Source: Candidatus Fermentibacterota bacterium
GTDB taxonomy: Bacteria; Fermentibacterota; Fermentibacteria; Fermentibacterales; JCC-6
DNA length: 64,000 bases
Direction: 5' to 3'
Assembly (NCBI GenBank): GCA_963845085.1
Contig: CAWJQI010000001.1
Coordinates: forward strand, 1-64,000
Part shown: positions 7,775 to 58,310 of the stretch, in pieces
How the letters are laid out: each line of letters begins with the position of its first letter
Numbering within the stretch: position 1 is the stretch's first letter
Made by a program: the position numbers and the translations under genes
The notes under the pieces: generated by a model
Told to the model about the DNA's origin: nothing
Database searches by the model: none
Seen by the model: only the letters and a program-made list of their open reading frames with translations

Positions 7775-7818
7775 GTATCAACTCTGGTTTACAACATGCG
7801 TTCTGCCAACTGGAGTGT

Positions 7819-7897: not shown

Positions 7898-7900
7898 CTT

Positions 7901-8378: not shown

Positions 8379-8447
8379 GGTATAGTATCTATACCTCACA
8401 GGTGGTGTTTGTCAAGTCGTTCATAACTCGAACAAGGATTGGTACAA

Positions 8448-18895: not shown

Positions 18896-18902
18896 TGTTA
18901 CT

Positions 18903-22448: not shown

Positions 22449-24793
22449 TATGGACTCCTCGGGATAGCCTTGATACTGGCTACGTCTAGCACTTCAACCG
22501 CGGCGAGCACGTCACCCAGGCCTGCGTCTAGGAAACGAGCGCTTTCCAGTGCATCATCATAGCCCTCACCGGAAACCACGGCGCGAAGAAAGGCGCACAG
22601 GTGGCGACCCGATACTCGGTTCCGGCCGCGTGCCTTCTGAATGCTCCTAAAGGTCTGTTTTATCAATTTTTCGGACGGATACACGCCAGAAGCTTTTGCC
22701 AGCTCTGCAAACTCGGCGAAGTGTTGCGGCGCTAAGACACCCTCATCGCCTTCGCGAAGCCAAGTCAGCAGCGCTTCATATGTAGCGTCGAGTCCTTGTG
22801 TACGCAGTCTTTCGTGAAGCTGGCGTTTGTTGGGGTACTTCTCATTGAGTTTCTGTTTGGCAGCTACCCAGAGTTCCATCGCAATGCGCTCTTTTAAGGG
22901 CAGTTGGGCTTCGACCACCTCGGTCAGCCGGTGAAACAGACTATCGTATTGTCCGTCGACGAAAGAGATAACGTGCCAACCGGGTTGTAGTTCGCCCACG
23001 GGTTTACGTTCGACTTGTCCCGTTGCGGTGAAATACACATCGATGTTGTGCTTGGCCGGAAAGCGGAGCGTGATTCCCTGACGGAACGTGACTTCAACGA
23101 CCTCACCTGTTTCAGGACTAGGTTCGAGGTTGTCGTCCGTAGGAGACGAAACGTGCAAGTCTTTATCTGAATATTGCTGTGTAAGCAACGCCGAGAGGTC
23201 GAGTAGGCTTGCCGTTTCGGAATACCGGGTCAACTCGACGGAACGGCCGGATTCTGCTCCAAGCACCTGAAGGTCTGGCCACCTTGCTGATGGCGAATCC
23301 TTTTCCACGGCAGAAGCCGGTAGCCGCAATCCGAGTTTGGCGAGGAACTCGATACGAGATGCGCTGCTACCCAATTCTGCAGCCATTGTTAAAAGACGTT
23401 GGTGAGCCGCCTTCTCGATAGCTGCCTCGAACGGATAGACGAAAACCTCGACCGGTTCTGACGGAAAAAGGTCCAAGTGACGGGAAGCCGAAGTTCTTGG
23501 ACCGAGTAACAAGGTGTGGCAGACGAATCCATCGGCCACGATGCGGGCTTCTTGCGAGGGAGTGACGATATCGACACGCCCTTCGGCGATGTTGTCGTCA
23601 ACCCCATCGATGATGTCAACCAGATGCCGACGTACCAACTCGAGCTCGGTTTCCGACCCGACGACAACGCGAACCACGGTCACTCTGTCCTTCAGTAATT
23701 GCTCCAGGCGGGTGGCAAGCGCCCAAAATTTCGCTGTCTCTTGACGTTTAAGGAAGATGGTGTACGTTGCCCGTACTGTCTCACAGAGGTCCGGCCATGT
23801 CGAGTCCCACACCGGATTGCCATAGCCTTGAATCGACGACAGCGATTCGATGCGCCGTCGGAGCGTCCCCATCCAAGTGCCAGAGGCAGCCTCCTCCATC
23901 TCAGTCAGCGGTACTACGAGGTTGCGCAGTCGCATATAGACGGACCAAACCATTTGAAATCCGGGATAGCTACGGCCCTCGGTCTGTTTCAGGATGCCGA
24001 TCAGGTGTTGATACAGATTTTCCAGCGCATTGGCCGCTTCCGCGTCATCTTCGCACACCCAAAGCGTCTTGGTGCCGAAAACTGGCGGCTTAGGCATTTC
24101 TTTTCCCAATACGCGTTCTGCGTCAGCTTTGGCCTGTGGATCCCAGAGCCACACAACAACCCGATCTGGGTAACCACACGCGGTCAAGGTTGGCTGGCTT
24201 AGCGGTGGAGTGACCGAAATGCGTATCGCGCTGTAGCCAATCGCCGCTTTAAGTAGGTCGGAAAAGCGACTGAGCGTCCGCGGGTGCGTGGCATCAATGA
24301 TCACCGCGCCAAACTTGCGCCCATCGGTCATCTTCATCGCCCAACCCGGATTGGCCAGAAAGACCCGTGGCATTTGTGACTGTGTCGAGGTGTAGCGGGA
24401 TAGCGGCACGACGTCCCAGAGTTTCCGTAGACGCTGGTTGCCAATCGACAGGTTTTCGAACTCGCTCTTAATCTTTGAGACGAACGGTGTAACTATGAGT
24501 AAGTCCCCTTTGAAAAGGGGTCGCACCTCAATCTCTGGCAGCCAGTCCACTCCGTTGCTATGGGCGTGGTTGCCTACCAATAACGCGGAGCTAATATGCA
24601 GCACAGTCGATGCCGTCGCCTCTGGCACCATAAAAACAAGTGTCTTGTCCGAGGCACTGAGGTTTAGTGCTGTCCTTACAGTGATGGCCCCACTAAGCTT
24701 TTCGAATGCTCGTGCTCCGGCCAGGAGCACAGGGCGATCTAGCAGCGCGTGCGTAACGGGCTGATCCGAGCATTGAAAGGCACTTACCCACAT
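22448..24793 (-). CDS. DrmE-like protein (degenerate helicase-like fold)
   Basis: 781 aa, 1-nt overlap with the drmA-like gene; size and position match drmE; C-terminal KPVGELQPG motif; no intact Walker A seen. Confidence 0.55.
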   Translation of the reverse strand: MWVSAFQCSDQPVTHALLDRPVLLAGARAFEKLSGAITVRTALNLSASDKTLVFMVPEATASTVLHISSALLVGNHAHSNGVDWLPEIEVRPLFKGDLLIVTPFVSKIKSEFENLSIGNQRLRKLWDVVPLSRYTSTQSQMPRVFLANPGWAMKMTDGRKFGAVIIDATHPRTLSRFSDLLKAAIGYSAIRISVTPPLSQPTLTACGYPDRVVVWLWDPQAKADAERVLGKEMPKPPVFGTKTLWVCEDDAEAANALENLYQHLIGILKQTEGRSYPGFQMVWSVYMRLRNLVVPLTEMEEAASGTWMGTLRRRIESLSSIQGYGNPVWDSTWPDLCETVRATYTIFLKRQETAKFWALATRLEQLLKDRVTVVRVVVGSETELELVRRHLVDIIDGVDDNIAEGRVDIVTPSQEARIVADGFVCHTLLLGPRTSASRHLDLFPSEPVEVFVYPFEAAIEKAAHQRLLTMAAELGSSASRIEFLAKLGLRLPASAVEKDSPSARWPDLQVLGAESGRSVELTRYSETASLLDLSALLTQQYSDKDLHVSSPTDDNLEPSPETGEVVEVTFRQGITLRFPAKHNIDVYFTATGQVERKPVGELQPGWHVISFVDGQYDSLFHRLTEVVEAQLPLKERIAMELWVAAKQKLNEKYPNKRQLHERLRTQGLDATYEALLTWLREGDEGVLAPQHFAEFAELAKASGVYPSEKLIKQTFRSIQKARGRNRVSGRHLCAFLRAVVSGEGYDDALESARFLDAGLGDVLAAVEVLDVASIKAIPRSP

Positions 24794-24796
24794 TAG

Positions 24797-26701
24797 TTAG
24801 CCAATCATGTGATGGCGTTCCCCAAGGCTCGCCAGATGATGTTTATAGAGATCCTTAAGGCTAGGAATCGTTTCATCGCGTACGAACTCGGCAAGGGCAT
24901 AACCCATAGCGGCCAGATTGCGTTCCGTTGCTGTATTCGGCACAACGGTGAGGTGGACAAATGCGTCTTTCTTCTCCGTCACCGGCAGACATTCGATTAC
25001 TAGGTCATGCAGCATGGCCTCAACGGAGCGCTTGCAGTGGTCCGTTGCGTTCTCGGCCAGGACAATGGCGAGGGCTTCGACAGCAAATCCGGCTTTGCGA
25101 AGAGCACCAGCGAGCGCGCACCATGCCGCAAGCTTCTTGTTGTGGAAGGTTAGCACAAGGCGACCGCCGCAGCGCAAGGTGCGACGGCTTTCCACCAGGC
25201 ATGCGGCGATTATGTCTTCGTAGTTCTGTGGCGTTGTACCACGATGGCAATTCGGCACCGCCTCGTCTGCCCCATCGACCGTGATCTGTGGCCAGTACAC
25301 CTTCATCCAGGCATGAAACGGGTGGGTCAGTTCGCCATACTGGACGTCGTCGTAGTATGGCGGATCAGTGATAACGATGTTTACGGAGCTCGCTGGTAAT
25401 GTCTGCAAACGGCTGCTGCCAGTGGTTACCAAGACATCCCAATCCGAAGTTCGACGGACCCGACCCGTCGATACTTGCGTGCGTACCCGCGGATAATGGG
25501 GACTGTCCTCGACCAGACTGTCGAGGACGATTGCCGCCGCCTGCAGACGATTCGGAATGGTGCCACGGCCCAACGGCGAGAGCAAATTCGTTTCGACCAC
25601 TATGTTCGAGTGTGCAAAGCGATGGTTGGCCATTGCCTCGAAGGCTTTCAGATGGAAACGGTCCCAGCGGCTTAAAAAGGCGGGCATCTCAACGGCACCG
25701 AGGACCGCAAAGGCGAGACGGTTCTTCACCGTACGGGATACTCGTAATTGCTTGATGCTCTGGATGGCTTCGAGCAGCATTTGCGCTTGGCGAGTCGAGT
25801 ACAGGTCCCCCCAGCATGAAAATCCCGCATTGAGCAAGCGACGCGTTTCGATGCCCGGCGGGATGGGCTGGGCCAAAGCTGGGTGCGCATTGCCAGCAGA
25901 CAGGGAGTCGACTGGATCGCCTGATTGAACCGTCCGCAGTCGTGGCCGAAGAACGTTACCATCGACAACCAGTTCTTGCACCAGGACTGGATGCCAGAGG
26001 GACGTTCTTCTTAGGTTTGCGCTGCTACAGTGGGCACAACTCGCCAAGGTTTGGTTGGCTACAGTCCGCGTGTTACACTGATCGCAGGTGAACGACTGTG
26101 CATCGCGTAGACGCCGGCTTACAGCTCCACAGACTGAACAGCCGAAAAAGGCGTGCTTGTTGCCGAGACTTCGACTTTCCAACGAAAGCATAGGGCTGGC
26201 GAACAGGAAGCTGCGCTTGCCACAGTCGGCGCAATCGGCGCTGCGCACCCGGAGGATGTGGCAGATTTCTGTGCCTTGGTCGGTCATATAGGTTTTTCGC
26301 AGATGTGCAAGTGCGTCGAGTAACTGCCGAGTGGCCTGATTCAGTTTCTGAGGGTCGCAGTGGCTAACAGCGACGCCTAGACCTATCGATGGCCAGGCGT
26401 GGATGTCCTGTGCGTAGACTTTGACTCCACGCCGAATTGCTTCGAAGGTGACGGTGCCACCACCGCTAAATGGGTCCGCCACAGCGACACCCTGCCCATA
26501 CTCTTCGATTGCAGCATCAAGGATGGCGCCCATGACGCTATGTGGTCGCCGTGCCCACCATCGGAAGGCTGACACGAATGGGGCGGAGCGTTCTCGGTTT
26601 TTAAGTTCATGGGCCACAGATTGTTCAAGCTTGCTCCACGCGACCCGCTGGAGTACCGCCGAGTTGCCGTCAAGAATCATTCCCTGTCGAGTCGAGGTCA
26701 T
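24797..26701 (-). CDS. DUF1156-like amino (N6A/N4C) DNA methyltransferase with Zn ribbons
   Basis: WWARRP, DPFSGGGT (motif I), CxxC repeats, ITDPPYYDDVQY (motif IV), LVLTFHNK. Confidence 0.8.
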   Translation of the reverse strand: MTSTRQGMILDGNSAVLQRVAWSKLEQSVAHELKNRERSAPFVSAFRWWARRPHSVMGAILDAAIEEYGQGVAVADPFSGGGTVTFEAIRRGVKVYAQDIHAWPSIGLGVAVSHCDPQKLNQATRQLLDALAHLRKTYMTDQGTEICHILRVRSADCADCGKRSFLFASPMLSLESRSLGNKHAFFGCSVCGAVSRRLRDAQSFTCDQCNTRTVANQTLASCAHCSSANLRRTSLWHPVLVQELVVDGNVLRPRLRTVQSGDPVDSLSAGNAHPALAQPIPPGIETRRLLNAGFSCWGDLYSTRQAQMLLEAIQSIKQLRVSRTVKNRLAFAVLGAVEMPAFLSRWDRFHLKAFEAMANHRFAHSNIVVETNLLSPLGRGTIPNRLQAAAIVLDSLVEDSPHYPRVRTQVSTGRVRRTSDWDVLVTTGSSRLQTLPASSVNIVITDPPYYDDVQYGELTHPFHAWMKVYWPQITVDGADEAVPNCHRGTTPQNYEDIIAACLVESRRTLRCGGRLVLTFHNKKLAAWCALAGALRKAGFAVEALAIVLAENATDHCKRSVEAMLHDLVIECLPVTEKKDAFVHLTVVPNTATERNLAAMGYALAEFVRDETIPSLKDLYKHHLASLGERHHMIG

Positions 26702-28719: not shown

Positions 28720-31700
28720 ATGGGGGATCTGGTGAGCCAAGTCGTCATCGAGAATCCGATAATAAATTCTCCTTTCTCTGAACCGACCAAGCATTTTAAA
28801 TTCTCTGATGAGGGAATCACCAACGAGATCATCAGCAGCCGTCGGGTAAGTTCATACTTTCATTCCCATCGCCCAGCCTCGAAAAAAAGGACAGACACAA
28901 CTCGAGTTCGATACGGAGTGGACGAAAGACCGCATCGAAGAGAACAAGCTGGTCAACGATGTTCGCAGGCGTGTGGAGATATGGCGACAGGGAGGCCATC
29001 TCGGTCTTACCCCTGTCACTGCACGACTCTTGGACTATTGGACCGATCCTGACCGGGAAAGGAAGCTATTCTTCTGCCAGATCGAGGCACTGGAAACAGC
29101 CATCTACATCACCGAGAGTGCGCCCGGAAGTACGGAGACACCTGGATCGAAAACGCCCTTCGGCAAGGCAATGACACCTCGAACCCTGGTCTGCCCCGGA
29201 TTGCCTTCAAGATGGCCACTGGCTCCGGCAAGACCGTGGTCATGGCAATGCTGATTGCATGGCACGCCCTGAACAAACTCGCGAATCCCCAGGATGCCAG
29301 GTTCTCAGACGCATTCCTGTTGGTCACGCCCGGGCATCACGATTCGGGACCGTTTGCGAGTCCTTCTCCCCAATGACCCGCAGAACTACTATCGGCAAAG
29401 GGATGTGGTCTCTACGGACGATCTTGAACTTCTTGGTCAGGCAAAGATAGTCATCACGAACTTCCAGTCTTTCATCCAGAGGGAGAAAGTCTCAGCGGGC
29501 AGGCTGACCAAGAGCATACTCACGCAGGGAGAGAACGATGCTTTCACCGAGACCCCGGACCAGATGATTCGGCGGGTTTGTCGGGAGCTGGGCACCAAGA
29601 AGAACATCATCGTGATAAACGATGAGGCACACCACTGCTACCGGAGAAAACCCGACGACTGAGGACGAGAAGCTCACTGGCGATGACCGTAGAGAAGCCG
29701 AGAAACGCGATGAAGAAGCCCGTGTCTGGATTTCTGGCATAGAAGCCGCTCAGAGGCAAGATCGGCGTGAAGCATGTCTACGATCTCTCTGCAACACCGT
29801 TCTTTCTGCGAGGATCGGGCTACGGCGAAGGCACGCTGTTTCCCTGGGTGGTATCGGATTTTTCCCTGATCGATGCCATCGAAGCGGGCATAGTGAAGGT
29901 CCCACGGGTGCCGTTTCGGACGACTCAATGGTCGGGGAACAGCCCAACCTACAGGGATCTCTGGCTTCGCATCCGAGACAGCTTGCCGAAGAAGGGCCGG
30001 AAGGACGTCGAGGTGTCGCGGTGAACCAATCTTCCTGCACGAGCTTCAGGGCGCCCTTCACAGCCTCTATGGCAACTACGAGAAATACTACAAGCTCTGG
30101 GAGAGTAATACCGAGGCCCAGCCAGCAGGCTCCACTCCCCCGGTCTTCATTGTTGTCTGCAACAATACGAACGTCTCGAAGCTCGTGTTTGACTACATTG
30201 CCGGCTGGGAAAAACAGGTTGGAGGAAAAACCGTTGTCCAGGCCGGGCAGCTCCCGATCTTCCGCAACGATGACGGGCACGGCAGGCTGGCTGCACCGCC
30301 CCAACACCATCCTGATAGACAGCCAGCAACTCGAATCCGGTGAGGCCATGAGCGCCGAGTTCAAGAAGATCGCCGCCCGGGAGATTGAGGAATTCAAGGC
30401 CGAGTACCGTGTCCGGTTCCCGGGCCGTGACGCGGAAACGCTCACCGATGAGGATCTGCTGCGCGAAGTGATGAACACGGTTGGCAAGGCGGGAAAGCTC
30501 GGAGAACAGGTCAAGTGCGTGGTCAGCGTCTCCATGCTCACCGAAGGATGGGATGCCAACACCGTCACACATATCCTCGGCGTCCGCGCTTTCGGCACAC
30601 AGCTTCTGTGCGAACAGGTCGTCGGCCGTGCCCTTCGTCGGATAAGCTATGCCGCTGAACGACCACGGGCAGTTCGAGCCGGAGTATGCCGAAGTCTATG
30701 GTGTGCCGTTCTCCTTCATTCCCTGCAGTGGCTCATCCACAGAACCCACAACCTGGCCCAATGCCCACCCGGGTCCGCGCGCTGGAGGATCGGATCGCTT
30801 GCGAGATCACCTTTCCCCGCCTGATGGGCTACCGCTACGACATCGAGGGTGACCGCATCGGTGCCGACCTTCACCGAGGACTCCAAGCTGGCGCTTTCCA
30901 CTGCGGACATCCCCACCGAGACCGACAATGGCCCCCATCGTCGGTGACATCGAGCATCCATACACTCGATGATCTGAAGACGCACCGGACCAACGAAGTC
31001 GCGTTCCTGCTGGCCAAGGTGACCCTGGAACGTTACTTCCGAGACGAAGAGGGCAACGACAAGACCCTGGCTGTTCCCCCAACTGCTCGCCATCACCAAG
31101 CGCTGGCTTGACGGAGTGCGTCATTCTCAAGGACAACACCTTCCCGCAGCTGCTCCTGCTCACGGAGTTCGCCCAGCGACGCTGTGGACCGGATCTACCG
31201 GGCCATCGTGAAGGCGACCCGGCACGGACCACCCTGAAGCCAATCCTGCGCCCATATGACACGGTTGGCTCCACCCGGTACGTGGATTTCGACACTACCC
31301 GTCCAGTTTTCGCCACCATGCCGGACAAGTGCCACATCTCCCACGTTGTTGCCGATACGGAGTCCTGGGAGCAGAAGATGGCCCAGGTGCTGGAAGACAT
31401 GGACGAGGTGTCCGCTACGTCAAGAACCACAACCTCGGCTTCTTCATCCCCTACACACTGGACGGCAAGGAAAGAACTACATCCCGGACTTCATCGCCTG
31501 CGTGGATGACGGGCACGGCCCAGATGACCTCTTGAATCTGATCATCGAAGTACGGGCGAGAAGAAGAAGGACAAGGCCGCCAAGGTCGCCACCGCCCGAA
31601 CCCTTGGGTGCCGGCAGTCAACAACCACGGTGGCTTCGGGCGCTGGGACTTCATTGAGATCGCCGACCCATGGGACGCTGAAAGAACCATCCGGGGGCAT

Positions 31701-31735
31701 TCTGAGAAAGGCTATCTACGGGGGAGGGCATCTGA
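28720..31735 (+). pseudogene. Type III restriction endonuclease (Res), many frameshifts
   Basis: [74 protein letters not shown] and YIPDFI in shifting frames. Confidence 0.85.
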
Positions 31736-31736
31736 T

Positions 31737-34370
31737 ATGGCTCGGAAGAAGAGCATAGCGACAAGCCGACTCCGTAGAATCCATCCGCCACAAGGACACG
31801 CGGAAGAACATCCCCACAGAAGAACTCGGGACTTCGTGGAGGAAGAGGAATCCGCGCCCAAGACCATGCTCTACCCGCGAGATCCTTCCCTGGACCCGCA
31901 ACTGGTCTGGAAGGGCAAGGACGAGCAGGACCGTGAGGACCTGGCCGTTCCTGTGGTTCCGATCTACATCCAGGAGAAGATCCACCCCAGGCCATCATCG
32001 ATGCCCTGCCCAGAAAAGAAGCCGAGCGAACGGCAGTCCCAGACCTCTTTGCCGACTTCAACGGCCTGCCCGAGGAGTTCGACCAGAGGGTCGACTTCTA
32101 CCAGCACGATGCACCACTGGTCCAACCGGATGATCCTGGGCGACTCCCTGCTGGTGATGACCAGCCTGGCCGAGAAGGGGGCTGAAGGGCAAGGTCCAGA
32201 TGCATCTACATCGACCCGCCCTACGGCATCAAGTTCGGCTCCAACTGGCAGGTCAGCACCCGAAAGCGGGACGTGAAGGACGGCAAGGCCGAGGATGCCA
32301 CCCGCCAGCCCGAGCAGGTGAGGGCTTTCCGGGACACCTGGAAGCTGGGCATTCACTCCTACCTGGCATATCTGCGGGACAGGCTGGTGGTGGCCAGAGA
32401 ACTTCTGACTGAGACAGGGAGCATCTTTGTGCAGATCGGGGATGAGAACGTCATCTTGTCAGGATGCTTGATGGATGAGGTGTTTGGTAGTGAAAATTTT
32501 ATTGCTGACATTATTTTCAGGAAAAAGAAGTATGCCGCTTGGCGCTCAGTTGCTCGAGACAATGCACGATCAGCTTCTTTGGTATGCGAAGGATGCTAAG
32601 CACTTAAAGTTTCGACACTTTTCATGAGGAGAGTGACGTTCTCGAGTATCATCACATGGACCTTATGCATTCTACCCTGATGGACGAACAGAGAAGATCA
32701 TGCTCGAAGATTTCAACAGCCCTGATCATCCGAAGCTGGAACTCGTTATTATCGTTTATTCACTTTGATAGCACCTTCATACTCGGATAAACACTACCTA
32801 TCCATTTGAAGTTATGGAGAAGGTGTACGCTCCTCCAGTAAGGGACTTGGAAGATTGATTGATAAGGCAAGAACGCTCTATCCTGGCCGAATTGGACGCT
32901 TCAGGAAGAGGGACAATCACTCAGTTATCGGCTTTCTTACGATGATTTCCCTGTAACAAATCGGACAAGTCTGGACTGATACACCCACATCTTCATCAGA
33001 AGATCTATGTCGTTCAAACTAACGAAAAAGGTAGTCGAACGCTGCCTCCTCATGACCACCGATCCCGGTGATCTCGTCCTTGATCCCACCTGTGGAGTGG
33101 TACCACCGCCTATGTCGCTGAGCAGTGGGGCCGTCGCTGGATAACCTGCGACACCAGCCGTGTCGCCCTCGCACTTGCCCGCACCCGTCTGATGGCAGGA
33201 AGGTATCCCTACTACCTTCTGGCCGATTCACTTGAAGGGCTACGGAAAGAAGCAGACCTGGCGAATACTATCCCGGCCCCCATCATCACAGAGGGAGACA
33301 TTCGAAAGGGCTTTGTCTATAAGCGTGTCCCGCACGTCACTCTCAAGAGCATTGCCAATAACCCTGAGATAAAAGAGGGTATGACCAGGGAAGAGATCGA
33401 TGCAGCCATTGCCCGACATGCGGACACTGAAACCCTCTACGACCAACCCTATGAGGACAAAAAGGTGGTCCGTGTCACGGGACCTTTCACTGTAGAAAGC
33501 CTCTCCCCTCATCGAGTTCTCTCTGTTGCGGACGATGATATGGACGGGTTGGTTTCGGAGGGCGAAGAGAAGTACCAGGTGGACTTCACTTCTATGATTC
33601 TCGAAAACCTTCGGAAGGCTGGAGTCCAGAACACGAAGATTCAGGAACGTCTGCGGTTCGATACCCTGAACCCCTATCCAGGAACGTGGCTTCAAGGAAC
33701 AGGTGAATACACTGATTCGGAAGGGAACCACAAGAGGGTAGCCATCTCAATCGGCCCCGAACATGGCACGGTAGGACCAAAACAGGTCAATGAAGCCGCA
33801 AAGGAAGCGGTACAGGGGATTGGTTATGACCTCCTCCTTGTTTGTGGCTTCGCCTTCGACCCTCATGTTGCAGAAGAGGTGAAGCGATACGGCAAGCTTA
33901 CGGTCCTTCCGGTCCGGATGAACCCCGACCTTGCCATGGGAGACGAACTTCTGAAGAAGACCGGAGCCGGCAACCTCTTCATGGTGTTCGGGGAGTTGTC
34001 ATTGGACATCAGGCACGTGCCCGACCGGAAGGTGATTGTTGAGATCAAGGCCCTGGATGTCTACGACCCAACGACCGGCCAGATCCGGTCATCTTCAACG
34101 GACGACATCGCCTGTTGGTTCCTGGACACAAACTACAACGGGGAAAGCTTCTTCGTTCGTCATGCCTATTTCACAGGGGCAGATGAACCCTATAAAAAGC
34201 TGCAAAGGGCCTTGAAGGCGGACATTGACGAGGGTGCTTGGTCCAGCCTCTACAGCACGATCAGTCGTCCCTTCGATCCTCCCGAGACCGGCAAGATCGC
34301 TCTGAAAGTGATTAATCACTATGGCGATGAAGTTCTTGAGGTGTTTTCAGTTTCTGATGTCGAGAGCTAA
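31737..34370 (+). pseudogene. Type III modification methylase (Mod), many frameshifts; central region garbled
   Basis: [67 protein letters not shown]. Confidence 0.85.
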
Positions 34371-45946: not shown

Positions 45947-46061
45947 TCGAAGGGTTCATCACCATTAAGGGGGGCATCCCTTGCCTTAAATCACGATTTC
46001 AGTGCAGCAGAACACAAGTCTCTGTGTCCATCTCACCTCCCGAAACAACCCTGCATTGGCC

Positions 46062-46200
46062 TTGGTGATGGCAACACGAGTATCCGCTTCCCGCACTATC
46101 GCCACGATCTGGGTTTCCGTGAATCTGGACTGCTTCATCCCGACCTCCTGGGTTGGCAGGAGGTCTCACTCTAACAAATGCCCCAAACCGGAAGCCTACG
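46062..46200 (-). mobile_element. Truncated relative of the 8819..10015 IS (left end plus orfA start)
   Basis: CGTAGGCTTCC...ATGAAGCAGTCCAGATTCACGGAAACCCAGATCGTGGCG, highly similar to 8819..8960. Confidence 0.9.
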
Positions 46201-46285
46201 ACCCTAGTGAGGATGAATCCATTGCCCAACCCAAACATCCACTTAAGTATTGATTTTTGAATCCTATCCTTTTCATTTCATGCTT

Positions 46286-46345
46286 GCACAACGCTTAGTA
46301 TCAGTGGCGGTGCGAAGCGCCGTCCGTTGCATGCTATTGTTGGGC
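46286..46345 (-). other. Integron attC site (60 bp)
   Basis: GCCCAAC-AATAG-CATGCAAC-GGACGGCGCTTCGCACCGCC-ACTGATA-CTAAGC-GTTGTGC; canonical 5/6-nt spacers and central hairpin; contains the stop of the last gene; L boxes have mismatches. Confidence 0.8.
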
Positions 46346-47326
46346 GACTGAAGCTTGGATGTTCCACTTTGGCGGATACCACTGAGGGACCGGCGACTGG
46401 CGCGGCGTGAACTTCTGCTTGATGCGGGTTCGTCCTGATTCTCCGTCGATCTCGGGATGCGCGACACGCGCGTACTTGCTGACCTCGCAGAACACGTTCT
46501 GACAATCGATGAGCTGCAGGCTACGTCCCCAAAGGCTCTGGAACTTCATACCCAGCCTCTTGAACTCGTCGTCCGCACGCTCGGCCATAACCTGGATGAT
46601 CTCCGCCTCCGTCAGGCCCGCCGTGTCTTTGAAGCACTTCCGGATTCCGTCCCGTGCGCCAGGCCCCGCGACGACAAAGTCCATCTCCGAGAAGTCAGTC
46701 AGCTCGCTGTAGTTGAGGTCGATCGCGAACTGGAACGCGAGAAAGTCCCCCAACGACGGATAGCCGCGCAGTAACTCGAACGCTGCTCGCAGCGAAGTCG
46801 TCTTCGGGAGCTTCCTTGGGGCTCCGTCAGCCATCATGTACTCGACGAGCCGCAGGTGGTTCCGGTGCTTCCGTGGGCTCCCGAACGCTGGCGAGGGCAT
46901 GATGTACGCGGCAGAGTAGACGCGCTGCCCGTCTTCAATCAGCCGATCCAGCACCTTCGCGTAAGTATCGAAGGCAAACTCTCGCCAGCACAGTGCACCG
47001 AGCTTCGTGCGGAGTGCTTCCCACGTCTCGATCTTGTTGAAGAGCTTGAACAGGATCGTTCGAAAGAAGACCTCCTCTGCCTTCTGCGAGCCTTCATAGA
47101 TCACGTGACGGATCAAGTACTGACTCACCCGGTCTGATGCACGATACGTGTTCGTGAACCGATGCACGCGGAGGATCGGGTCATCGGTCCACGGCGGCAT
47201 GCTGCCCAGCACGCGGCGCATGAACATCTCCTGACGCTCCGAAGCGAAGCGCCAGTACGTGTCGAATACGGGTGTCGTCTTGAGCACACGCCCGCCTTGA
47301 AGCCGGATCTCGTAGGGCGTTGGCAT
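46334..47326 (-). CDS. aGPT-PPlase clade 1 / 5-hmdU DNA kinase helical-domain family protein
   Basis: ERQEMFMRR..G..PPWTDDPILRVHRFTNTYRASDRVS, LFKLFNKIETW, YSAAYIM, GDFLAFQFAIDLNYS, GPGARDG, DCQNVFCEVSKY. Confidence 0.8.
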   Translation of the reverse strand: MPTPYEIRLQGGRVLKTTPVFDTYWRFASERQEMFMRRVLGSMPPWTDDPILRVHRFTNTYRASDRVSQYLIRHVIYEGSQKAEEVFFRTILFKLFNKIETWEALRTKLGALCWREFAFDTYAKVLDRLIEDGQRVYSAAYIMPSPAFGSPRKHRNHLRLVEYMMADGAPRKLPKTTSLRAAFELLRGYPSLGDFLAFQFAIDLNYSELTDFSEMDFVVAGPGARDGIRKCFKDTAGLTEAEIIQVMAERADDEFKRLGMKFQSLWGRSLQLIDCQNVFCEVSKYARVAHPEIDGESGRTRIKQKFTPRQSPVPQWYPPKWNIQASVAQQ

Positions 47327-47328
47327 AC

Positions 47329-47886
47329 TTAATCGTTCCACTCGGTGCCCGTGCGGTTCTTGCCGAACGAGTCCCTTGAGTTGTCGGGCAACTCGCGGCT
47401 CTTCCGCAGATAAGCCTCATGAATCCACCCTTGCACGGATTCGGCGTCCTCCGACCAGTTGTGGATGCTCGCGAACCCGCACTTGATGTTGTCGTAGAGC
47501 CGCGGCGGGATCGTTCCGCGGTTGTACTTCAGCCGATCGACACGACCATAGTGCTTGTCGTAGGTCGGAAGCAGGATGCCGAGGAGCCCCGAGCGCGGGT
47601 TTGCCTTTGTGTCTCGGATCGACGAACCGATCTCCCAGTCGACATGCTTTCGCTGCCACGTAAGCGCGCCGATTAGTACGACAGTTACTGATGTGTCCCG
47701 AAGGTACTCGTCTCGAATCTTCTGCCGGATGGTCTCGGTAGGTAGGTTGGGATCGATGTCGCCGACATTCACTGACCCAGGAACGATGGCTCCAAAACTG
47801 TTCCCGAAGCGGAGCTCGAAGATGTTCTTGTATGACTCGTCAAGCTCGTGGTGATAGCTAACGAACACCTTGTGCGTGTTACTCAT
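47329..47886 (-). CDS. ThsB-like TIR domain protein (DUF1863/MTH538)
   Basis: KVFVSYHH, IRQKIRDEYL..TSVTVVLIG..T.QRKHVDWEI (catalytic Glu retained). Confidence 0.85.
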   Translation of the reverse strand: MSNTHKVFVSYHHELDESYKNIFELRFGNSFGAIVPGSVNVGDIDPNLPTETIRQKIRDEYLRDTSVTVVLIGALTWQRKHVDWEIGSSIRDTKANPRSGLLGILLPTYDKHYGRVDRLKYNRGTIPPRLYDNIKCGFASIHNWSEDAESVQGWIHEAYLRKSRELPDNSRDSFGKNRTGTEWND

Positions 47887-48930
47887 GTGATTCCTCTCGA
47901 AGATGAAGGCAGCCCTTGTCTGGCCTGAACGCCGTGCACTCGCTCAAGCCAGGCAGACCAAACTTGAACAAGCTGCGGATTTGTACAATCAGCCATGAGT
48001 GCTTGGGAGTGATCCAACCGGCCACGCCGACGAGCCGAATCGGCAGCAAGCACGCGGAGTAGGTTGCGATAACCGACCGGGGCATCATCAATCGCGGCGA
48101 TATGGGAGACCTGTGTCTCGTTGAGCTCCGGCGCCGTAAGCATGGTCATCCGCCGATACATCTCGCTGACGAGTTGCTCACCTCGGTCGATGGGCAAGGC
48201 AAGTGAATCGGTGTTCCTCTCCTCGGCCACCGGAGCGCCACAGGAGAACTCATCCAGGGCATCAGCGTAGATATGGAGGCTGTCACTCCACTGGTGATAC
48301 CCGCCAAGCTCGAGGCCAAGCCATCCAGCCATTACCTCCTGCAAGAGAGTGAATTGTGTAAGGTTATTTGGCAGACCCCGAAAGACGTCGTTACTTCGCA
48401 GCACCTGTGTCCACTCGAGGCGTCCGTCGCGAACCTTCAGCATCGACATCATGTTGCACGGCACATCCGCACTGCGGGGCGCCCCGTCGGCATGCGGTAG
48501 GTCGGTAAGGACATCCCAGAACTGGAGAGCGACCTGTCGGCTCTTCGGATCTGAGGACAAAGCAGCGCACGCTCGCTTGACCTGGTCGACACCGAAGTGC
48601 TTCCGCAGACGGTGGCCGTAGGCCCCCGTCATAGGTGGACCCATGGCCCGCGAACTTGGGCAAGCTCCGAAACCAGTAGTTCAGGACGGCGGCATCGTTG
48701 CTGCCAGCCAGAATCCAGAGTGCATCAGCGATGGCGAAGGCTGGGTTGACCCCAGGCCGACGGGAGAGGACCCAGCGCTGGCGAGGATCTTCAACCTCGA
48801 GGCCAACGTGCAGAAGCTCCAGCGTATCTCCCACGCGGCTTGGCTGCTTCGCCTGTGCTGCGGTCGCAATGACTGCTGCATGGGCTTGACGCCAAACCCC
48901 GTCAGCCGTTCGCGCGCGAAAGGTCTCCAT
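47883..48930 (-). CDS. Thymidylate synthase / dUMP hydroxymethylase homolog (one extra G in a G-run at ~48625)
   Basis: NPAFAIA, G/AYGHRLR, SRQVALQFWD, DVPCN, LRSNDVFRGLPNN, SDSLHIY. Confidence 0.85.
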
Positions 48931-48932
48931 GA

Positions 48933-49595
48933 CTATTGTCTCGCCATCTTGCGTCCGCCGTTCTGGCAGCCCGGTTGTTGGCGAACGTGGCGCGCGAACT
49001 CCAGAGGATCGCCCTGGAAGCCCCACTTCCCCTGTTGCTCAAGCCAGCTCGCGAATGCAGTAGCGAGCTCGTCCTTGAAAACACGATAGCCTCGCGCCTT
49101 GCAGCAGATGTCCTGGTCTGTCTTGCGGAAGGGCCGAAAGTGCTCCGGGATCACCGGTGCGGCCTCTCCCCAGTAGACGAACTTCGTGCCGACGAGTACG
49201 CGATTCGTGCTTGTGTCCCAGGCGATGTTGGCCTTGTTGGGTCGGCCGTTCTCCAAGCTGTGGTGCGAGTCTGCCTGGACCCACCGCTTGCCTTCGCGGT
49301 GATAGATGTTGTCGCCGTAGATGACTTTGAGGCTGCCGTTCAGGTTTGGACGCTTTCGAAGGAATCGTGGATCGGTCCAATACTTCTCGAAGTCGAGGAC
49401 CTCGGCCACCTGCATCGCGTAGATGAGTCGGCCAGTGAAGTCATACCTCGACTTCGCGCCCGTCCCGATGATCCAGTCACCAACACTCGCACCGGCGCGG
49501 ATCCTTGGCTTACACGTCGCCAAAGTGCAGAACCCGTGGAACGGGTTCGGGGCGAATCCGAAGTCACGCGCGACGATGTACGAGTAAAGCCTCAT
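48933..49595 (-). CDS. Nucleotide modification associated domain 2 (Nmad2) protein
   Basis: MRLYSYIVARDFGFAPNPFHGFCTLATCKPRIR..A.VGDWIIG...LIYAMQV...GDNIY. Confidence 0.8.
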   Translation of the reverse strand: MRLYSYIVARDFGFAPNPFHGFCTLATCKPRIRAGASVGDWIIGTGAKSRYDFTGRLIYAMQVAEVLDFEKYWTDPRFLRKRPNLNGSLKVIYGDNIYHREGKRWVQADSHHSLENGRPNKANIAWDTSTNRVLVGTKFVYWGEAAPVIPEHFRPFRKTDQDICCKARGYRVFKDELATAFASWLEQQGKWGFQGDPLEFARHVRQQPGCQNGGRKMARQ

Positions 49596-50078
49596 CCGCA
49601 GGTATACCTCTTGCCTACCCAGACCGGTGTCGTGCGCGGGTTCCCCGTGGCGGGGTCGTCCCAACCGGTAATCTTGCCGTTGATCGCATCGACGACGCGA
49701 TCTCGCTTGCCAACCGACAACCGCAGCGTCGCCGTGCTTCCGAAGCTCGTCCGGGATGTCTGCGTCCGTCGCGCCCTGAGCGAACACGCCGACGACGTTC
49801 TTGCCCTGCTCGATGGCGTACTTGATCTCCCATTTCACCCAGTCGCTTTTCACCGTGTCGTGCGTGATTAGCACTGCTAGCGTGCTGGCCCACTGGATGC
49901 GGGGAGCGAGGATTTCGCGCTTGATGTATTCCTCGTTCGACGCCGCGTTGGGCTTATCGCTGTTGATCGACCCGTCGCGCACCTCCATCCCGGCCTTCGA
50001 GATGAGATCCTTCAGCTTCGGCAGAAGGTCGTCATCCTCGTGTACGTGAGAGATGAAGATGTTCTTCTTGTCCGCCAT
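49592..50078 (-). CDS. ThsB-like TIR domain protein (DUF1863), one extra base at ~49703
   Basis: NIFISHVHEDD...SDWVKWEI; after correction ends DRVVDAINGKITGWDDP...KRYTCG* with an ATGA overlap onto nmad2. Confidence 0.8.
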
Positions 50079-50083
50079 GCTCT

Positions 50084-52144
50084 TCACTCCGCGCTACCAG
50101 CCATCGCTGGACGGTTGCATTCCTGCATGCCGTGAAGAATCAGTTCTACGATCCGCTCTGCTGATCGCGTCATGGCGAGCTCACGGTTCTCATCCTCGGT
50201 CAGCCCGTTCTTAATGCCGGCTATACCGCGCGACTTCAGCTCATCGGCGATCGCGTCGTACTCATCCCATGATTCACCCCTCCGCTGGTAAATCACTCGC
50301 AGCTCCTCGGAGTACGGTGCTGTCTTCTGGTGGTCCCACTGTAGCTCGGGCCTGGAACGGCCCTCCAACGCATCGAACACTAGCCGAGCGCAGCCACCGA
50401 ACGCGCCGACGAGATAGACAGGGCGCTCGGTACGGATGGTCAGGAGCGCTTCCTCAAGCACTCCCGGCATTCTGCCCCGATAGCCATCCCCGGCTGGCCC
50501 GAGACGGCCTCCGACGACGACGCGCGCCGCGACCTCATCGGCTTGCCGCTGCCGCATGATGGTAAGGCCGCGAGCCCATGCAAACCGTCGCATCGCGCGA
50601 GTCCACGGGGATGTCCGTTGCCGGCGCTGCAACGAATGCCGTGATCGACCGTCTCGTTGAGCCCTGCGGGCCTCGCGCAACGGCGCACCTCCACCAGCGC
50701 GCTCTGTCTATTAAGGCGAGCGACGACGGCTGGGGTAGTCGCGACAGGCCACGCCAAGTACGAGACCAGCTCTGCCGGGCGCGCGGCGCCAGACACAGCC
50801 TCGCCTCGAAGTTGCTCGATGGTCGGGTCGTACAAGAGGTCCGCGAGACGGACGGTATAGCCGACGGAGCCGAGGTGGCCGCCGTACGCAAGGCGAACTC
50901 CGGCTACCAACAGGTATCGCGAGATCTCGAGCAGCACCTCGTCGAGGTGCGGCTTGCGCAGACCGAATCGCGGGAGGTCTTCCGACTCCGAAATCGATAG
51001 CGCGACAAGGAGCTGCTGCGCCCGCAGGTCGTGGGCCTTGGCATGGCGCTCAAGAGGGGTCTCGACCGTGTACTCCCGCGAGGGATAGCACGGCGAGCTC
51101 CTCTGTTCCGAGCGGAGGATCGGGATACAGCAATGGCTTCGCCTTGTCCCGGTGCACCACCGTCACGAGCTCAGGACCCGAGGGGAGGATGTCGTCTCCA
51201 GGGCGTGCGCGCTGACGAAGCATCTCCTCCGCGTATGCGTGACGGAGGGTCTCTCGAAGAAGCGAGTCGACGACATCTCGCGGGTCGTCACGCCACCGGA
51301 GTACGGGCGCATTGCCTGCGTATGGGAAGCGCCGAATCTCGCGCTCCTGTAGCGCGTCGACGATCACGAACGGCCTCTGGTAGCGCTTCGCGAAGAGGAC
51401 CTCTCTGCGGCACCACGACCGTGACGAGTAGGCATCGGTCGCAACTGCGAGGAGCGCAGAGTCGGTCACTCCGTCCTCAATCGCCTTGGCGAAGCGAGAA
51501 CCGGACGCGATATCTCCGCAGTCGAACCAGGTCTTCTCCGGCTGGTTCGCCTTCAAGTACTCGAGCAGCGAGTTAACAACGCCGGGCTTCTTGCCCACAT
51601 CGATCTTCGCGTGGCTGAGGAAGATGGTCACCGCAGGGGCGTCGTCGTCGGTCGGGTGCGGGCGCAGACGGCGGATCAGAAGGTGCAGCATCCGACGCGC
51701 CACGAACTTCTTGCGCTCCTCATCATCGGGCTCATCGAACGCTCGAAGGAAGCTCAGGTCTTTGAGGCGCTCGTCGACTGGCCAAGCAAAGCTACTGAGG
51801 CTCACGGGGAGGAAGCGATGGTTGGGAGACTCGTCGCAAAGCTCGCGGAGCTTGACCGCGTAATCCCCCCACGTGATACCGCCGTCCTTGCCGGTCCTCG
51901 AATGCACGACAAGCTGGTCGTCAGCCAGCAGCACGACGAGCACGCGGTCTGCCTCGTCGCTGAGTCGCGGCTCGGGCGGCATGAACGAGTAGTCGTCAGG
52001 CGTGAAGCTGGTGGGGATGCGAAGGCCTGGAACCGCAGCGTCATCGTTGATGACCGCTCGGAGGTACTCTGCCATTGCGGAGGCATCGGTCGACGCAGGA
52101 TGAAACTCGAATTGAACAAGTACTGGAAAGCGAAGTCCGCTCAC
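50084..52144 (-). CDS. TIR plus SLOG (cluster-2 type) protein, ~685 aa, split by about three frameshifts
   Basis: TIR: IFLSHAK..WFD..DI..G..F..AI..YSSRSWCRRE; SLOG: ALSISESEDL...LAYGGHL, LTIMR...ARVVVGG..GYRGRMPGVLEEA...PVYLVGAFGG. Confidence 0.8.
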
Positions 52145-52169
52145 GTATTAACGCTCCTCATGTTCTTAA

Positions 52170-52197
52170 TCGCCCAACAATTCTTCTACAGCTGTCT
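52170..52197 (-). other. Cassette core site GTTGGGC in an attI-like context
   Basis: CTGTAGAAGAATT-GTTGGGCGA; 9-bp complement of TCGCCCAAC at 46347..46339; no attC palindrome upstream. Confidence 0.55.
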
Positions 52198-52227
52198 GCT
52201 TGTAGGATCTTCTTTTTCAATGCCCCG

Positions 52228-52256
52228 AGAATGATGTTCCTTCTCTTCCATGTCAA
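52228..52256 (-). promoter_or_regulatory. Sigma70-type promoter reading into the cassette (Pc-like)
   Basis: TTGACA-17 nt-CATTCT, about 50 nt upstream of the core site. Confidence 0.6.
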
Positions 52257-52348
52257 TACCTATAGCACGACATGAAACGTCGTGTACACGCCATTCTTTG
52301 TTCTCCGGTGTTTTTGAACGGTTGGAAAGGTATCCAGTTCGGAGGTGC

Positions 52349-52762
52349 TTACCTTACAATCCCTACCTGCCTGTAGAAACTCAGGAAGTCCTCCTCCCCC
52401 GTCTCCTCCAGGATGAGCCCGTCCACGATTCGGTACAGGGTCATTCCGGTCCAGGTTGTTTTGATTCCGGAGGCGGGGATGCCAAGAATGGGTGCGGAAT
52501 GGGTTCCGGTGAAGCTCCAGCGGAGCACCACCTTTTCTCCACCGTCCACCACATCAAGCACTGTTACCTCGGAGTCCGGAAAGGCTGCCCTGAAGCCCTC
52601 CATCACCCTCCTGTAAAGCCGTGGGCCGTGGATTACCATGGGTATCACGGGGTACTTCACTGTGATTTCGGGATGAGCCAGTTCCTTGATAAGGTCGAGG
52701 CTTCCCTGGCCCCAGATCTCAAGGAAGCGTTGGGCTATGTCTGCGTTTTTTGTTGCAGCCAT
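52349..52762 (-). CDS. SnoaL-like ester cyclase
   Basis: FRAAFPD...DVVDGGEKVVLRWSFTGTH...GIPASG...YRIVDGLI. Confidence 0.88.
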   Translation of the reverse strand: MAATKNADIAQRFLEIWGQGSLDLIKELAHPEITVKYPVIPMVIHGPRLYRRVMEGFRAAFPDSEVTVLDVVDGGEKVVLRWSFTGTHSAPILGIPASGIKTTWTGMTLYRIVDGLILEETGEEDFLSFYRQVGIVR

Positions 52763-52822
52763 CTTCCCTCCCATCGTGTTTTCCTGCATCGGCAGAGAAG
52801 TCGGAGCGTGCTCCCCGCCCCC

Positions 52823-55186
52823 CTACCACCTCTCCGGCACACTTCTCCAGATCTGGTCGAAGGCTGCCTGCCAGCTCTTTGATTCACCGAGTTGCCTGGC
52901 CTTCTGGGCCATCGCTTTTCTTGCTGGTTCGTTGTCGGTGAGCTCAATGATCTTCTGGGCGAGGTCCGCGGCGTCCCTTCCGTGGTAGGTGAGGCCTGTT
53001 TCGTTTGGTCTGATGATCTCCTGGGGGCCGCCCATGTCGGTTACGATGGCGGGGAGGCCTGAGGCCTGTGCTTCGAGAACGCTGTTGCCGTAGGTGTCGG
53101 TGGTGGATGGGAAGACGAAGATGTCTGCGGAGGCGTATGCCTTTGAGAGGTCCTCGCCCGACATGCGGCCGGCGAGGTAGCCGCCGTTGCCGAGTATCCT
53201 GCTGCCCAGCTCTCCCATCCAGGGGCCGTCGCCGACTACGAAGAGCTCAATGTCCTGCCTGGTCTGCCTGACGATGTTGAATGCTTCGGCGAGGACGTCG
53301 AGGTCTTTTTCCCGGCTGACCCTGCCGGTGTAGAGGAGTTTTGTTGCCTCTTTGGTTCCGCCGAACTTGGTGAGGAATGCTTCGTCTCTCCACTTCGGTG
53401 AGAAGGTCTCGGGGTCGGTGCCCCTGGGGAAGGGTTCCATCTTCTTGCGGTCTACGCCGAGTGATGCGAGGTCGTCCATGTAGTAGGTGCTGGGGACCAT
53501 GACGCGGTCAACCATGCTGTAGAACCATGTCATGCCGCCCGCTGCGAACTCGCCCATCCAGGCGTCGGCCACTATCTCCCTGATGTGCCTGGGGAAGTCG
53601 GTGTGGTAGATGCCGACGGTGGGGATGCCGAGGATCTTCGCTGCCGCGATGACGGCAAAGCCCATGGGGCCGGGCGTGGAGATGTAGATCATCCCGAACT
53701 CGTTCTCCTCGAGGAACCTGAGGAGTTCGAGTATCGGGGGGATGGCGAGGGTTTTTGACGCGTAGTCGGGAACGGGGAACTCGGTCACGGGCTGGAAGTT
53801 CACAAGCCAGCCCGGGAAGGAGATCTGACGGCTCTGGCTTGTTACGAGGGCAAGCTCCTTGCCGTTGTCCATGGCGAGCCTTGCGAACCTTTGGAGGGTT
53901 CGGGAGACTCCGTTCAGGTCGTCTATGGTGTCGGTGACCCAGGCTCTTTTTTCCAAATTGTGGGCGGCGGGGGAAGCGATGTTGAGGTGCTTTGTGATGG
54001 TGTTGACCGATTCCCTGCCCCTCTTCCTGTCGAGGTAGGCTATGGGGAACGGGGCGTTGAGGAGGAATACCGGGAGCATGGCGTTGAGCGAGCCCACGGC
54101 GTCGAGCATGCGGCCCTCGCCGAACCTTGTCACCATGAGGCCGATGAACCTCTGGAGGAGGCGGTTGGTGAGGCGGTTGAGGATCTGGAAGGTGCGCTCC
54201 TCTATCCCCTCCTGGAGAAGCTCGGGGCTGCCCCTTCTGAGGTTCAGGTCACGTCCTATCTCTACGAGTTCGTCGCCGAGGAAGGTTTCGAAATCGGGTT
54301 CCCCCGACTTCTTCGCCTTCTTGAGAAGCTGGTGGAAAAGGAAGTCGGCCTTGTGCCAGAGTGTCGGTTCCTCTTCCTCAGTGTTGGTTTTCGGGCTGAA
54401 GAAGCTGTCGGCGGCCATGGTGGCGACCGAAGGGACCTTTTTGGCGTTGAGGGAGTGGCGGTAGAAGCTGTAGGCGATGGAGTAGACGGCGTATGCCGAC
54501 CTGGTGGCGGTTCCGTGTTCACCGCCGGGAACCCCCTCCCCGTTCCTTACTGCCTTCAGGAAGTCTTCTGTTGTTTTTGCCTTCGGAACCATGGTCCAGG
54601 TGAGGCCTATGAACCTTCCGCAGTGGTCGTCGCTTCCCGCGGTGCAGCCCGTGAAGCTCCGGCCCTTTATGGCTGCGGCCGTCTCGAGGGCTGCGCTGTT
54701 CTCCCACGAGGCGCGGGTGCCGTTCCTTACCTCGATGAGTTCCATCGCCTTCACAAGGTCGGTCCATTCACCGGGGGGAAGGTGCCCCCCCGGTGAGTAG
54801 AAGGGATGCGCCAGCGAGTGGGCGATTTGTTGGTCCCTGAGGTATTCGAGGAGTTCGAAGCCCCTTTCCCTCAGGGCTGATATCCTGTCGTGCTGTTGGT
54901 GGTCGATGCCGTAGACCAGGATGTGAACCATGCTCTTGCTCTCGGGCATTACCATGGCCACCTCTTCGCTCATGAACACCCCGGGAAGGCCATTTATCTT
55001 CATGACGCCGTCGATGGTGTTCATGTCGGTTATGGTGACGAAGTCCATGCCGCGCGAGCGGGCCTGCTCGTACACGAGTTCGGGGGGTGTGAAGCTCTCG
55101 GGAGCCTTGAGGGCCCGTAGTATCCAGCGCGCCGAAGTGGTTGAGGCGCTGGAATGAACGTGCATGTCACATTTCCGTGAAGTCAC
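52823..55186 (-). CDS. PHP-domain plus GT4 glycosyltransferase fusion
   Basis: CDMHVHS, ITD, AHPF, GSDDH; DDLNGVS, YHTDFP, GRVSREKDL, FPSTTDTYGNSVLEAQASG. Confidence 0.88.
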   Translation of the reverse strand: MTSRKCDMHVHSSASTTSARWILRALKAPESFTPPELVYEQARSRGMDFVTITDMNTIDGVMKINGLPGVFMSEEVAMVMPESKSMVHILVYGIDHQQHDRISALRERGFELLEYLRDQQIAHSLAHPFYSPGGHLPPGEWTDLVKAMELIEVRNGTRASWENSAALETAAAIKGRSFTGCTAGSDDHCGRFIGLTWTMVPKAKTTEDFLKAVRNGEGVPGGEHGTATRSAYAVYSIAYSFYRHSLNAKKVPSVATMAADSFFSPKTNTEEEEPTLWHKADFLFHQLLKKAKKSGEPDFETFLGDELVEIGRDLNLRRGSPELLQEGIEERTFQILNRLTNRLLQRFIGLMVTRFGEGRMLDAVGSLNAMLPVFLLNAPFPIAYLDRKRGRESVNTITKHLNIASPAAHNLEKRAWVTDTIDDLNGVSRTLQRFARLAMDNGKELALVTSQSRQISFPGWLVNFQPVTEFPVPDYASKTLAIPPILELLRFLEENEFGMIYISTPGPMGFAVIAAAKILGIPTVGIYHTDFPRHIREIVADAWMGEFAAGGMTWFYSMVDRVMVPSTYYMDDLASLGVDRKKMEPFPRGTDPETFSPKWRDEAFLTKFGGTKEATKLLYTGRVSREKDLDVLAEAFNIVRQTRQDIELFVVGDGPWMGELGSRILGNGGYLAGRMSGEDLSKAYASADIFVFPSTTDTYGNSVLEAQASGLPAIVTDMGGPQEIIRPNETGLTYHGRDAADLAQKIIELTDNEPARKAMAQKARQLGESKSWQAAFDQIWRSVPERW

Positions 55187-58072: not shown

Positions 58073-58159
58073 AAAAAAAACCGCCCTTCATTCGCTGCCG
58101 CGAATGCAGGACGGCCGGCGCGAACCCTGAAGCGGGGTTCAATACACCGTGCAGCCCGG

Positions 58160-58310
58160 GGGTGAGTATCCTGACTTCCGGATCGGCCCTTGCTCCGCCT
58201 TCCCAGCCCTTTGCGGCCAGTGGCATCTGGAGTTCGGTACCCGGTTACAGTGGCGCTACCGTGACGGAATTACACCGTCTTCCTGCACCCGCGGCAAACG
58301 AACATACCGG
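58160..58310 (-). ncRNA. Cobalamin riboswitch
   Basis: AGGAAGACGGTGTAATTCCGTCACGG..GCCACTGTAA...GCCACTG...GGGAAGG...GAAGTCAGGATAC (B12 box) upstream of the receptor. Confidence 0.9.

Follow-up and report, generated by a model that had tools for sequence, protein, structure and literature searches.

The DNA analyzed here, hereafter the window, comprises positions 1 to 64,000 of contig CAWJQI010000001.1 from a Candidatus Fermentibacterota bacterium (assembly GCA_963845085.1; genome G000 below). Its minus strand carries a six-gene operon that an original prediction, made from the sequence alone, had proposed to be packaged as a single integron cassette of about 5.9 kb. The operon lies between a core site and an attC site and encodes proteins with TIR, SLOG, thymidylate synthase (TS)-fold, Nmad2, and 5-hydroxymethyldeoxyuridine (hmdU) DNA kinase-related domains (Table 1). 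The count of six genes holds after allowing for five frameshifts, and several gene junctions overlap start and stop codons. The WEI glutamate of the TIR proteins encoded by genes 2 and 5 is presumably the catalytic residue of ThsB-type TIRs. The best PDB match of the intact gene 4 copy in locus L025 is a cytidine monophosphate (CMP) 5-hydroxymethylase (E 4e-25), and the TS-fold protein retains a Cys and an Asn, the latter of which we take to be the uracil-specifying residue.

Table 1. Features of the cassette locus (positions in the window)
Feature	Position	Strand	Basis
Integrase-less integron platform: pair of putative divergent promoters (TTGACA, 52256-52251), then attI up to the crossover GTT	52179..52274	-	conservation across copies
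Cassette core site GTTGGGCGA, crossover G/TT	52170..52178	-	exact complement of inverse core
Gene 1: N-terminal domain, TIR_2, and SLOG cluster 2; ~680 aa in intact homologues	50084..52144	-	PF13676, PF18163
Gene 1, three frameshifts	near 51070, 50644, 50597	-	single-base
Gene 2: ThsB-type TIR, WEI glutamate kept	49592..50078	-	PF08937; PADLOC ThsB 152 bits
Gene 2, one frameshift	near 49705	-	
Gene 3: Nmad2, intact	48933..49595	-	PF18753 E 5e-70; 86% to L025
Gene 4: thymidylate-synthase-fold, nucleotide-hydroxymethylase-like	47883..48930	-	PF00303
Gene 4, one frameshift	near 48630	-	
Gene 5: second ThsB-type TIR, intact, WEI motif	47329..47886	-	PF08937
Gene 6: 5-hmdU DNA kinase helical domain (HMUDK_hel), intact	46334..47341	-	PF18723 E 5e-116
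attC, 60 bp; recombining bottom strand is the window plus strand	46286..46345	-	covariance model, fold, alignment with homologous attCs
Remnant of insertion sequence (IS) left end, presumably IS3 family, ~85 bp past attC; terminates the array	46060..46201	-	85% identical to IS end at window 8818-8962

Both ends of the operon were found where they had been predicted. The core site lies 34 nt 5' of the gene 1 GTG start codon, and gene 6 terminates in TCGCCCAACAATAG (46347-46334), the leading 9 nt of which are the exact reverse complement of the core (9/9). Because the core 9-mer occurs just 13 times across 2 x 2.45 Mb of genome, the chance expectation is about 3e-4 for the 100 nt 5' of gene 1. 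The attC, within which the gene 6 stop codon falls, consists of R'' (GCCCAAC), a 5-nt spacer, L'' (CATGCAAC), L' (ACTGATA), a 6-nt spacer, and R' (GTTGTGC); its bottom strand folds as a canonical hairpin (-11.3 kcal/mol vs -7.0 for the top strand). We scored it with a covariance model of our own (not that of IntegronFinder, and with roughly calibrated E-values) built from 13 attC sites of an array on contig C5 of this genome and of integron loci in other genomes, the window attC and its homologues being excluded. The site was the top of four matches in the window (34.7 bits, E 6e-5), and the scan of the whole genome returned only this attC and six sites on C5, five of which are training sequences. 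No Rfam family matched at the attC. A looser attC heuristic, which gave 1059 matches in the genome yet missed the window attC, was dropped and replaced by a stricter structural scan and the covariance model. No attC was detected within the operon, in line with the original prediction: the best covariance-model match in 46346-53000 scored 8.5 bits (E 1.2), and the structural scan likewise returned none. Measured between the two G/TT crossover points, the cassette is 5886 bp long, close to the size proposed.

The original prediction had also pointed to mismatches in the attC L boxes as a sign that the cassette may now be fixed. Three of seven top-strand positions are indeed mismatched, but on the bottom strand, the one that recombines, each of them forms a G.T pair, and such pairs are described as frequent on attC bottom strands (PMC5027507). 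Fixation is nonetheless plausible, mainly because no intact intI was found.

The sequence upstream of the core is an integron platform. About 100 bp 5' of the core recur at C5:159232-159130 in the same genome and in four of seven congeneric genomes; the seven aligned copies are all conserved exactly up to the GTT and unrelated beyond it, and two additional copies end after the promoter part. The TTGACA-bearing segment is a candidate cassette promoter (Pc-like); a strict sigma-70 scan found no promoter at the platform. On C5, the platform stands back to back with a 109-aa 5' remnant of intI that is 59% identical to the full IntI of genome G003. The G003 gene adjoins an M42-like peptidase gene orthologous to that of the C5 locus, and G001 holds a similar piece of intI. 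At the window's own locus, 3' of a GT4 glycosyltransferase gene, genomes G004 and G002 retain sequence resembling the start of intI. In the sister genome G002, a different cassette occupies the same attI, comprising two HNH genes and an attC, and its inverse core complements its own core. Intact intI genes are present in 16 of the 35 genomes searched. These alignments identify the 5' site as attI of a chromosomal integron that has decayed, which would place the cassette in first position behind a Pc-like promoter. Of the components of a complete integron, attI and a Pc-like promoter ahead of the cassette are recognizable by homology, whereas an intact intI beside attI is not.

The slot downstream of the GT4 gene is variable across the genus (window 52349-52789; L100-L103), with a SnoaL gene here, the HNH cassette in G002, and other accessory genes in G005 and G003, and the start of intI, attI, and the promoter have been lost from it stepwise. 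Just 5' of intI, several relatives have a near-palindromic TAC-N4-GTA-type motif, possibly a repressor (LexA-like) box (L151:30-50, L129:435-455, L145), which is degenerate in the window. The C5 locus (G000:C5:147400-159620; L136, L145) is a second integrase-less integron, in which the same Pc/attI platform and the intI 5' remnant accompany six or more attC sites; this array is a CALIN (cluster of attC sites lacking an integrase). Its attC-to-attC intervals measure 1093, 3259, 1486, 2016, 1399, and 714 bp, of which the 2016-bp one probably conceals a further attC. The 3259-bp interval contains a frameshifted gene of ~1050 aa, the initial 694 aa of which have no Pfam match, and the 60-bp attC that closes this interval is 85% like the window attC over 48 bp.

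Homologues were collected with gene 6 as the query, which gave 521 genome and 558 metagenome relatives, 80 of each being kept. The attC model was run on 22 close genome loci and 15 close metagenome loci, two of which appear to duplicate genome loci; of the 60 more distant genome loci, only L041 and L086 were included, and the 64 more distant metagenome loci and the truncated L169 were set aside. An attC directly follows gene 6 in three of the 22 genome loci (L034, 50.3 bits; L032, 36.2; L037, 16.9) and two of the 15 metagenome loci (L166, 36.6 bits; L191, 14.7), and the weakly scoring sites of L037 and L191 nevertheless align clearly by sequence. Both ends enclose the operon in two Planctomycetota metagenome-assembled genomes (L032, 5991 bp; L037, 5997 bp) and on metagenome contig L166 (5960 bp), where the core is degenerate (the 9-mer with two mismatches). 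The identical core 9-mer precedes the operon in L032, L037, and Azotobacter chroococcum (L150). In the array of the latter species (L150/L034), whose genome bears a full intI, the core follows the IS-split attC of the previous cassette, and a PIN_12 gene comes after the cassette's own attC. L032 carries the remnant of an integrase upstream and, downstream, a weak second attC-like site; L037 has neither. The sequence 5' of the GTT differs in every cassette copy, as expected from separate IntI insertions (MAFFT alignment A3 misplaces the window core; the window leader is ~30 nt shorter). Thus, both boundaries are shared by homologous operons in L032, L037, L166, and A. chroococcum, the comparison that had been set as the test of the original prediction. 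Among 70 genomes of the host phylum, the gene 6 family was found in only three, counting the present genome, and a plasmid collection yielded two distant TIR-SLOG matches (~30%).

The IS within the preceding attC of A. chroococcum (L150:3040-4440) has short inverted ends and is presumably of the IS110/IS1111 type; a further gene two positions upstream (L150:4981-5937) looks TIR-like by eye. The integrase remnant of L032 (L032:4693-5058) is co-oriented with the cassette, an 'inverted integrase' arrangement mentioned in PMC4889954.

Given a core complementary to its own inverse core, the attC boxes, spacers, and hairpin, no detectable internal attC, and boundaries shared across att contexts, the 5886 bp very probably represent a single integron gene cassette, the first one after the attI of a chromosomal integron that has lost its integrase. 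The proposal that a multi-gene defense operon was mobilized as one giant cassette is thereby supported at the sequence level, by an attC that scores with an independent model and boundaries that recur in homologues. A chance landing of an ordinary island-borne operon at a secondary GTT site, beside an attC-like hairpin, is extremely improbable. The locus does lie on the margin of a large accessory region that holds other defense-like genes, and the hairpin is not significant against shuffles, but this account is contradicted by the model score, by the conservation of the attI platform, and by the recurrence of the ends in other phyla, and the homologous boundaries refute it.

Most other homologues lack att sites. 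Among 19 open reading frames (ORFs) flanking 14 such loci, we identified HsdR (2), HsdM (2), HsdS (3), BrxL (3), Mrr (2), RhuM (2), GmrSD (1, below cut-off), and DUF5655 (1), with no family assigned to three; most of these loci border type I restriction-modification (RM), BREX, or Mrr genes. In its first two segments, window gene 1 shows 80-91% DNA identity to the att-free L028, L035, and L041 and 65-71% to cassette copies, whereas the 3' end matches only cassette copies over its full length. A single clade of cassette copies was rejected for gene 6 (6 rows vs 33; P value of the approximately unbiased test, p-AU, 4e-6) and for gene 1 (5 rows vs 18; 3e-56, quick tree); the L041 row of gene 6 is partly out of frame and on a long branch, and the trees, having no reliable root, give no direction. 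Gene 4 encodes the TS-fold protein in the window, L020, L025, and L038 and a MazG-MazG_C-like protein in 15 of the 18 loci listed (Pfam-confirmed on L032). These patterns suggest either that the cassette interior was swapped by recombination or that the cassette state is old, with repeated loss. After gene 6 of L083 (10970-10990) and L025 (10990-11005), the sequence resembles the start of an attC and then diverges, and these two loci are possibly domesticated ex-cassettes.

The same comparisons bear on whether the locus could be an array of several small cassettes fused by deletion of the internal attC sites. Fused cassettes are known, and gene 4 differs among copies, but a 5' core matching R'' of the last gene is not predicted by fusion, no internal attC remnant was found, the gene order is identical in the att-free RM/BREX copies, and several junctions overlap start and stop codons; we consider fusion very improbable.

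Other observations weigh against the single-cassette reading or its extension to a functional, exchanging unit. The folding energy of the window attC alone is no better than that of shuffles (z -1.0; the A. chroococcum copy folds at -18.1 kcal/mol, z -3.1), the site is weaker than its homologues, and R' is one base away from GTTRRRY. No intI above the TIGR02249 cut-off is present in this genome (88% complete), where the 109-aa remnant on C5 is the only trace. Comparison with related genomes for an empty site, as suggested in the original prediction, gave no exact case among 70 genomes of the phylum (DNA search of attC plus the downstream 83 bp, and attI pattern; one-mismatch pattern matches are possibly due to chance). 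The attC-bearing homologues are few (3 of 22 and 2 of 15), with weak scores in L037 and L191, and in A. chroococcum, the two ends are on separate contigs and an IS interrupts Nmad2. For gene 5, the cassette copies are partly clustered (three changes; 3 of 500 shuffles as low). The antiphage effect of the E. coli system DS-4, which has similar gene content (see below), is modest, with a -log efficiency of plating of 0.93 on lambda and smaller plaques in one assay row (PMC13092281). Finally, the window copy has five frameshifts, so it may be non-functional. Neither an excised circle nor a joint across the cassette was seen in the one weakly matching DNA run (share 0.05), the contigs of which barely cover the cassette, so that this run is uninformative; no matching RNA run was listed.

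The five frameshifts, which break genes 1, 2, and 4, raise the possibility that the window copy is a true pseudogene rather than one affected by long-read errors. The cassette has 0.85 frameshifts per kb, as opposed to 0.12 per kb for 25 neighboring core genes and 0.02 per kb for the reciprocal control; this density is consistent with real decay, as are the G-to-A changes at three L-box positions by comparison with the A. chroococcum attC. Conversely, each of the five consists of one extra base, the aligned parts contain no in-frame stop, and the core genes of this genome too show more frame changes than those of a relative (5 in 13,940 aa vs 1 in 15,645 aa). True decay is thus a substantial possibility, to which we assign somewhat less than an even chance.

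Following established integron biology, an IntI would have turned the unit into a circle at its attC and integrated it through attC x attI recombination, which would have put the six translationally coupled genes under the Pc-like promoter. Homologous recombination with the non-cassette copies of RM/BREX islands may have exchanged the interior, leaving the att ends in place. In this genome, the cassette is probably immobile unless IntI is supplied in trans. More broadly, we suggest, at a likelihood only slightly short of even, that a still-mobile 6-kb shell shuttles a whole defense operon, combining signaling with nucleotide modification, among integrons of several phyla and that the genes of its interior are traded one at a time with att-free RM/BREX copies. 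The competing view, which we regard as unlikely but well worth weighing, is that a once-mobile cassette is now a fossil in all hosts, spread mainly via genomic islands or recombination, with IntI unable to move 6 kb usefully. Degenerate attC or core sequences in L032 (R' GTC), L037, L166, and the window and the lack of intact intI in G000 and G042 are compatible with fossilization, as are the reports that a capture screen failed to recover an IS-containing Vibrio cholerae cassette whose attC sites lie 4 kb apart (bioRxiv 10.64898/2026.03.17.712381) and that excision drops with length for some attC pairs (PMC5371416). However, no two copies lie behind the same att site, and the junction falls precisely at GTT each time, which would require several separate IntI events. 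Moreover, the attC of A. chroococcum is almost perfect, excision still occurs with synthetic 3-kb cassettes (Loot et al., PMC5371416), and the C5 array of the same genome includes the 3259-bp interval. If the shell is indeed still mobile, large multi-gene cassettes would be a real class concealed by the 4-kb rule of the standard tool, and the point at which attC replaces the tail of the last gene would record the making of a cassette from a chromosomal operon.

The cargo is very likely an antiphage system. As a tentative scheme, the exact chemistry of which we would hold to be somewhat doubtful, the two ThsB-type TIRs would sense infection and produce an NAD-derived signal, and the SLOG domain of the gene 1 protein would bind this signal and turn on its own TIR_2 domain as the effector. 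In parallel, the TS-fold enzyme would supply hydroxymethyl-dUMP, or MazG, in the copies that have it, would trim the dNTP pool instead, and the hmdU-kinase domain and Nmad2 would act on modified pyrimidines in phage DNA.

Elsewhere in the window, a 97%-identical direct repeat (3-1585 and 6934-8517) contains two toxin-antitoxin-like gene pairs parted by a weak attC (888-965 and 7819-7896; 19 bits), R' of which is likewise GTTGTGC, and is flanked by a short repeat present elsewhere in the genome. On the minus strand at 17001-26701, methylase-like, DrmE_C-like, and helicase genes and others without a family label stand in a row; the matches are weak and suggest a possible DISARM- or Druantia-like defense locus. 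Restriction-modification-like genes, presumably type III, are broken into many ORF pieces at 28900-34370. A cobalamin riboswitch (58144-58307, minus strand; Rfam RF00174, 84.8 bits) precedes a frameshifted receptor-like gene.

In gene content, the operon resembles DS-4 (working id NTTI), a 3.9-kb, five-gene E. coli system listed as defensive in the DefensePredictor paper (PMC13092281). Both combine a thymidylate synthase, an hmdU-kinase hypermodification protein, a TIR protein, and Nmad2 in one operon, as judged by setting our Pfam families beside the gene names in the supplement rather than by direct sequence comparison. DS-4 has a dNMP/adenylate kinase and one TIR, whereas no such kinase family is found among the six window genes, which include three TIR genes, one of them a TIR-SLOG fusion; in most homologues, moreover, TS is swapped for MazG-MazG_C. 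The available text of PMC13092281 does not explain the DS-4 mechanism. The ThsB-type TIRs and the SLOG-containing partner are shared with Thoeris types I and III (bioRxiv 10.64898/2025.12.03.692087; PMC13276650), but the window operon has no SIR2 or Macro effector and adds three nucleotide-modification genes. Unlike type I, it has no SIR2-SLOG ThsA: gene 1 combines TIR_2 with SLOG cluster 2 and has no PADLOC ThsA match. Type III is described as having several TIRs and an SMF/DprA-type SLOG effector; several TIRs and a SLOG domain are present here too, but the latter belongs to Pfam cluster 2 and is fused to TIR_2.

Among integron structures, the locus resembles a CALIN (PMC4889954) in having a cassette without a neighboring intI, integrase loss being shown by remnants. 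It is not a CALIN, defined by at least two attC sites within 4 kb and no intI, because it has only one attC, which would be discarded; it also retains attI and a promoter. The same paper describes the largest known cassettes as ~2 kb, the clustering of attC within 4 kb, and the discarding of single sites, and Loot et al. (PMC5371416) give a median cassette coding sequence of 362-575 bp. A six-gene, 6-kb cassette behind different att sites in three phyla challenges the size rule of one or two genes, and as a natural substrate it makes that rule testable. That one operon occurs both as a cassette and outside cassettes also offers a rare handle on cassette creation, which PMC4889954 describes as unknown. 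We found no paper on this cassette or one of its size in a literature search that did not extend to most subscription journals or to preprint supplements, either of which could hold larger cassettes. In the available text of the integron defense survey of Darracq et al. (bioRxiv 10.1101/2024.07.02.601686), defense system types never exceed two components and lengthy loci are absent; a cassette of this kind could be invisible to that survey, which used IntegronFinder, because this tool, in its 2016 description, clusters attC at 4 kb and discards single sites (PMC4889954). Two-gene integron cassettes with ThsB-like TIRs (brc22, brc23) are described in the antiphage cassette papers (Darracq et al.; Kieffer et al., bioRxiv 10.1101/2024.07.02.601719). 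The notable features here are the cassette size, gene number, cross-phylum spread, and mosaic interior: like the described antiphage cassettes, this one is bounded by attI and attC, with defense cargo under a Pc-like promoter, but it holds six genes in 5.9-6.0 kb.

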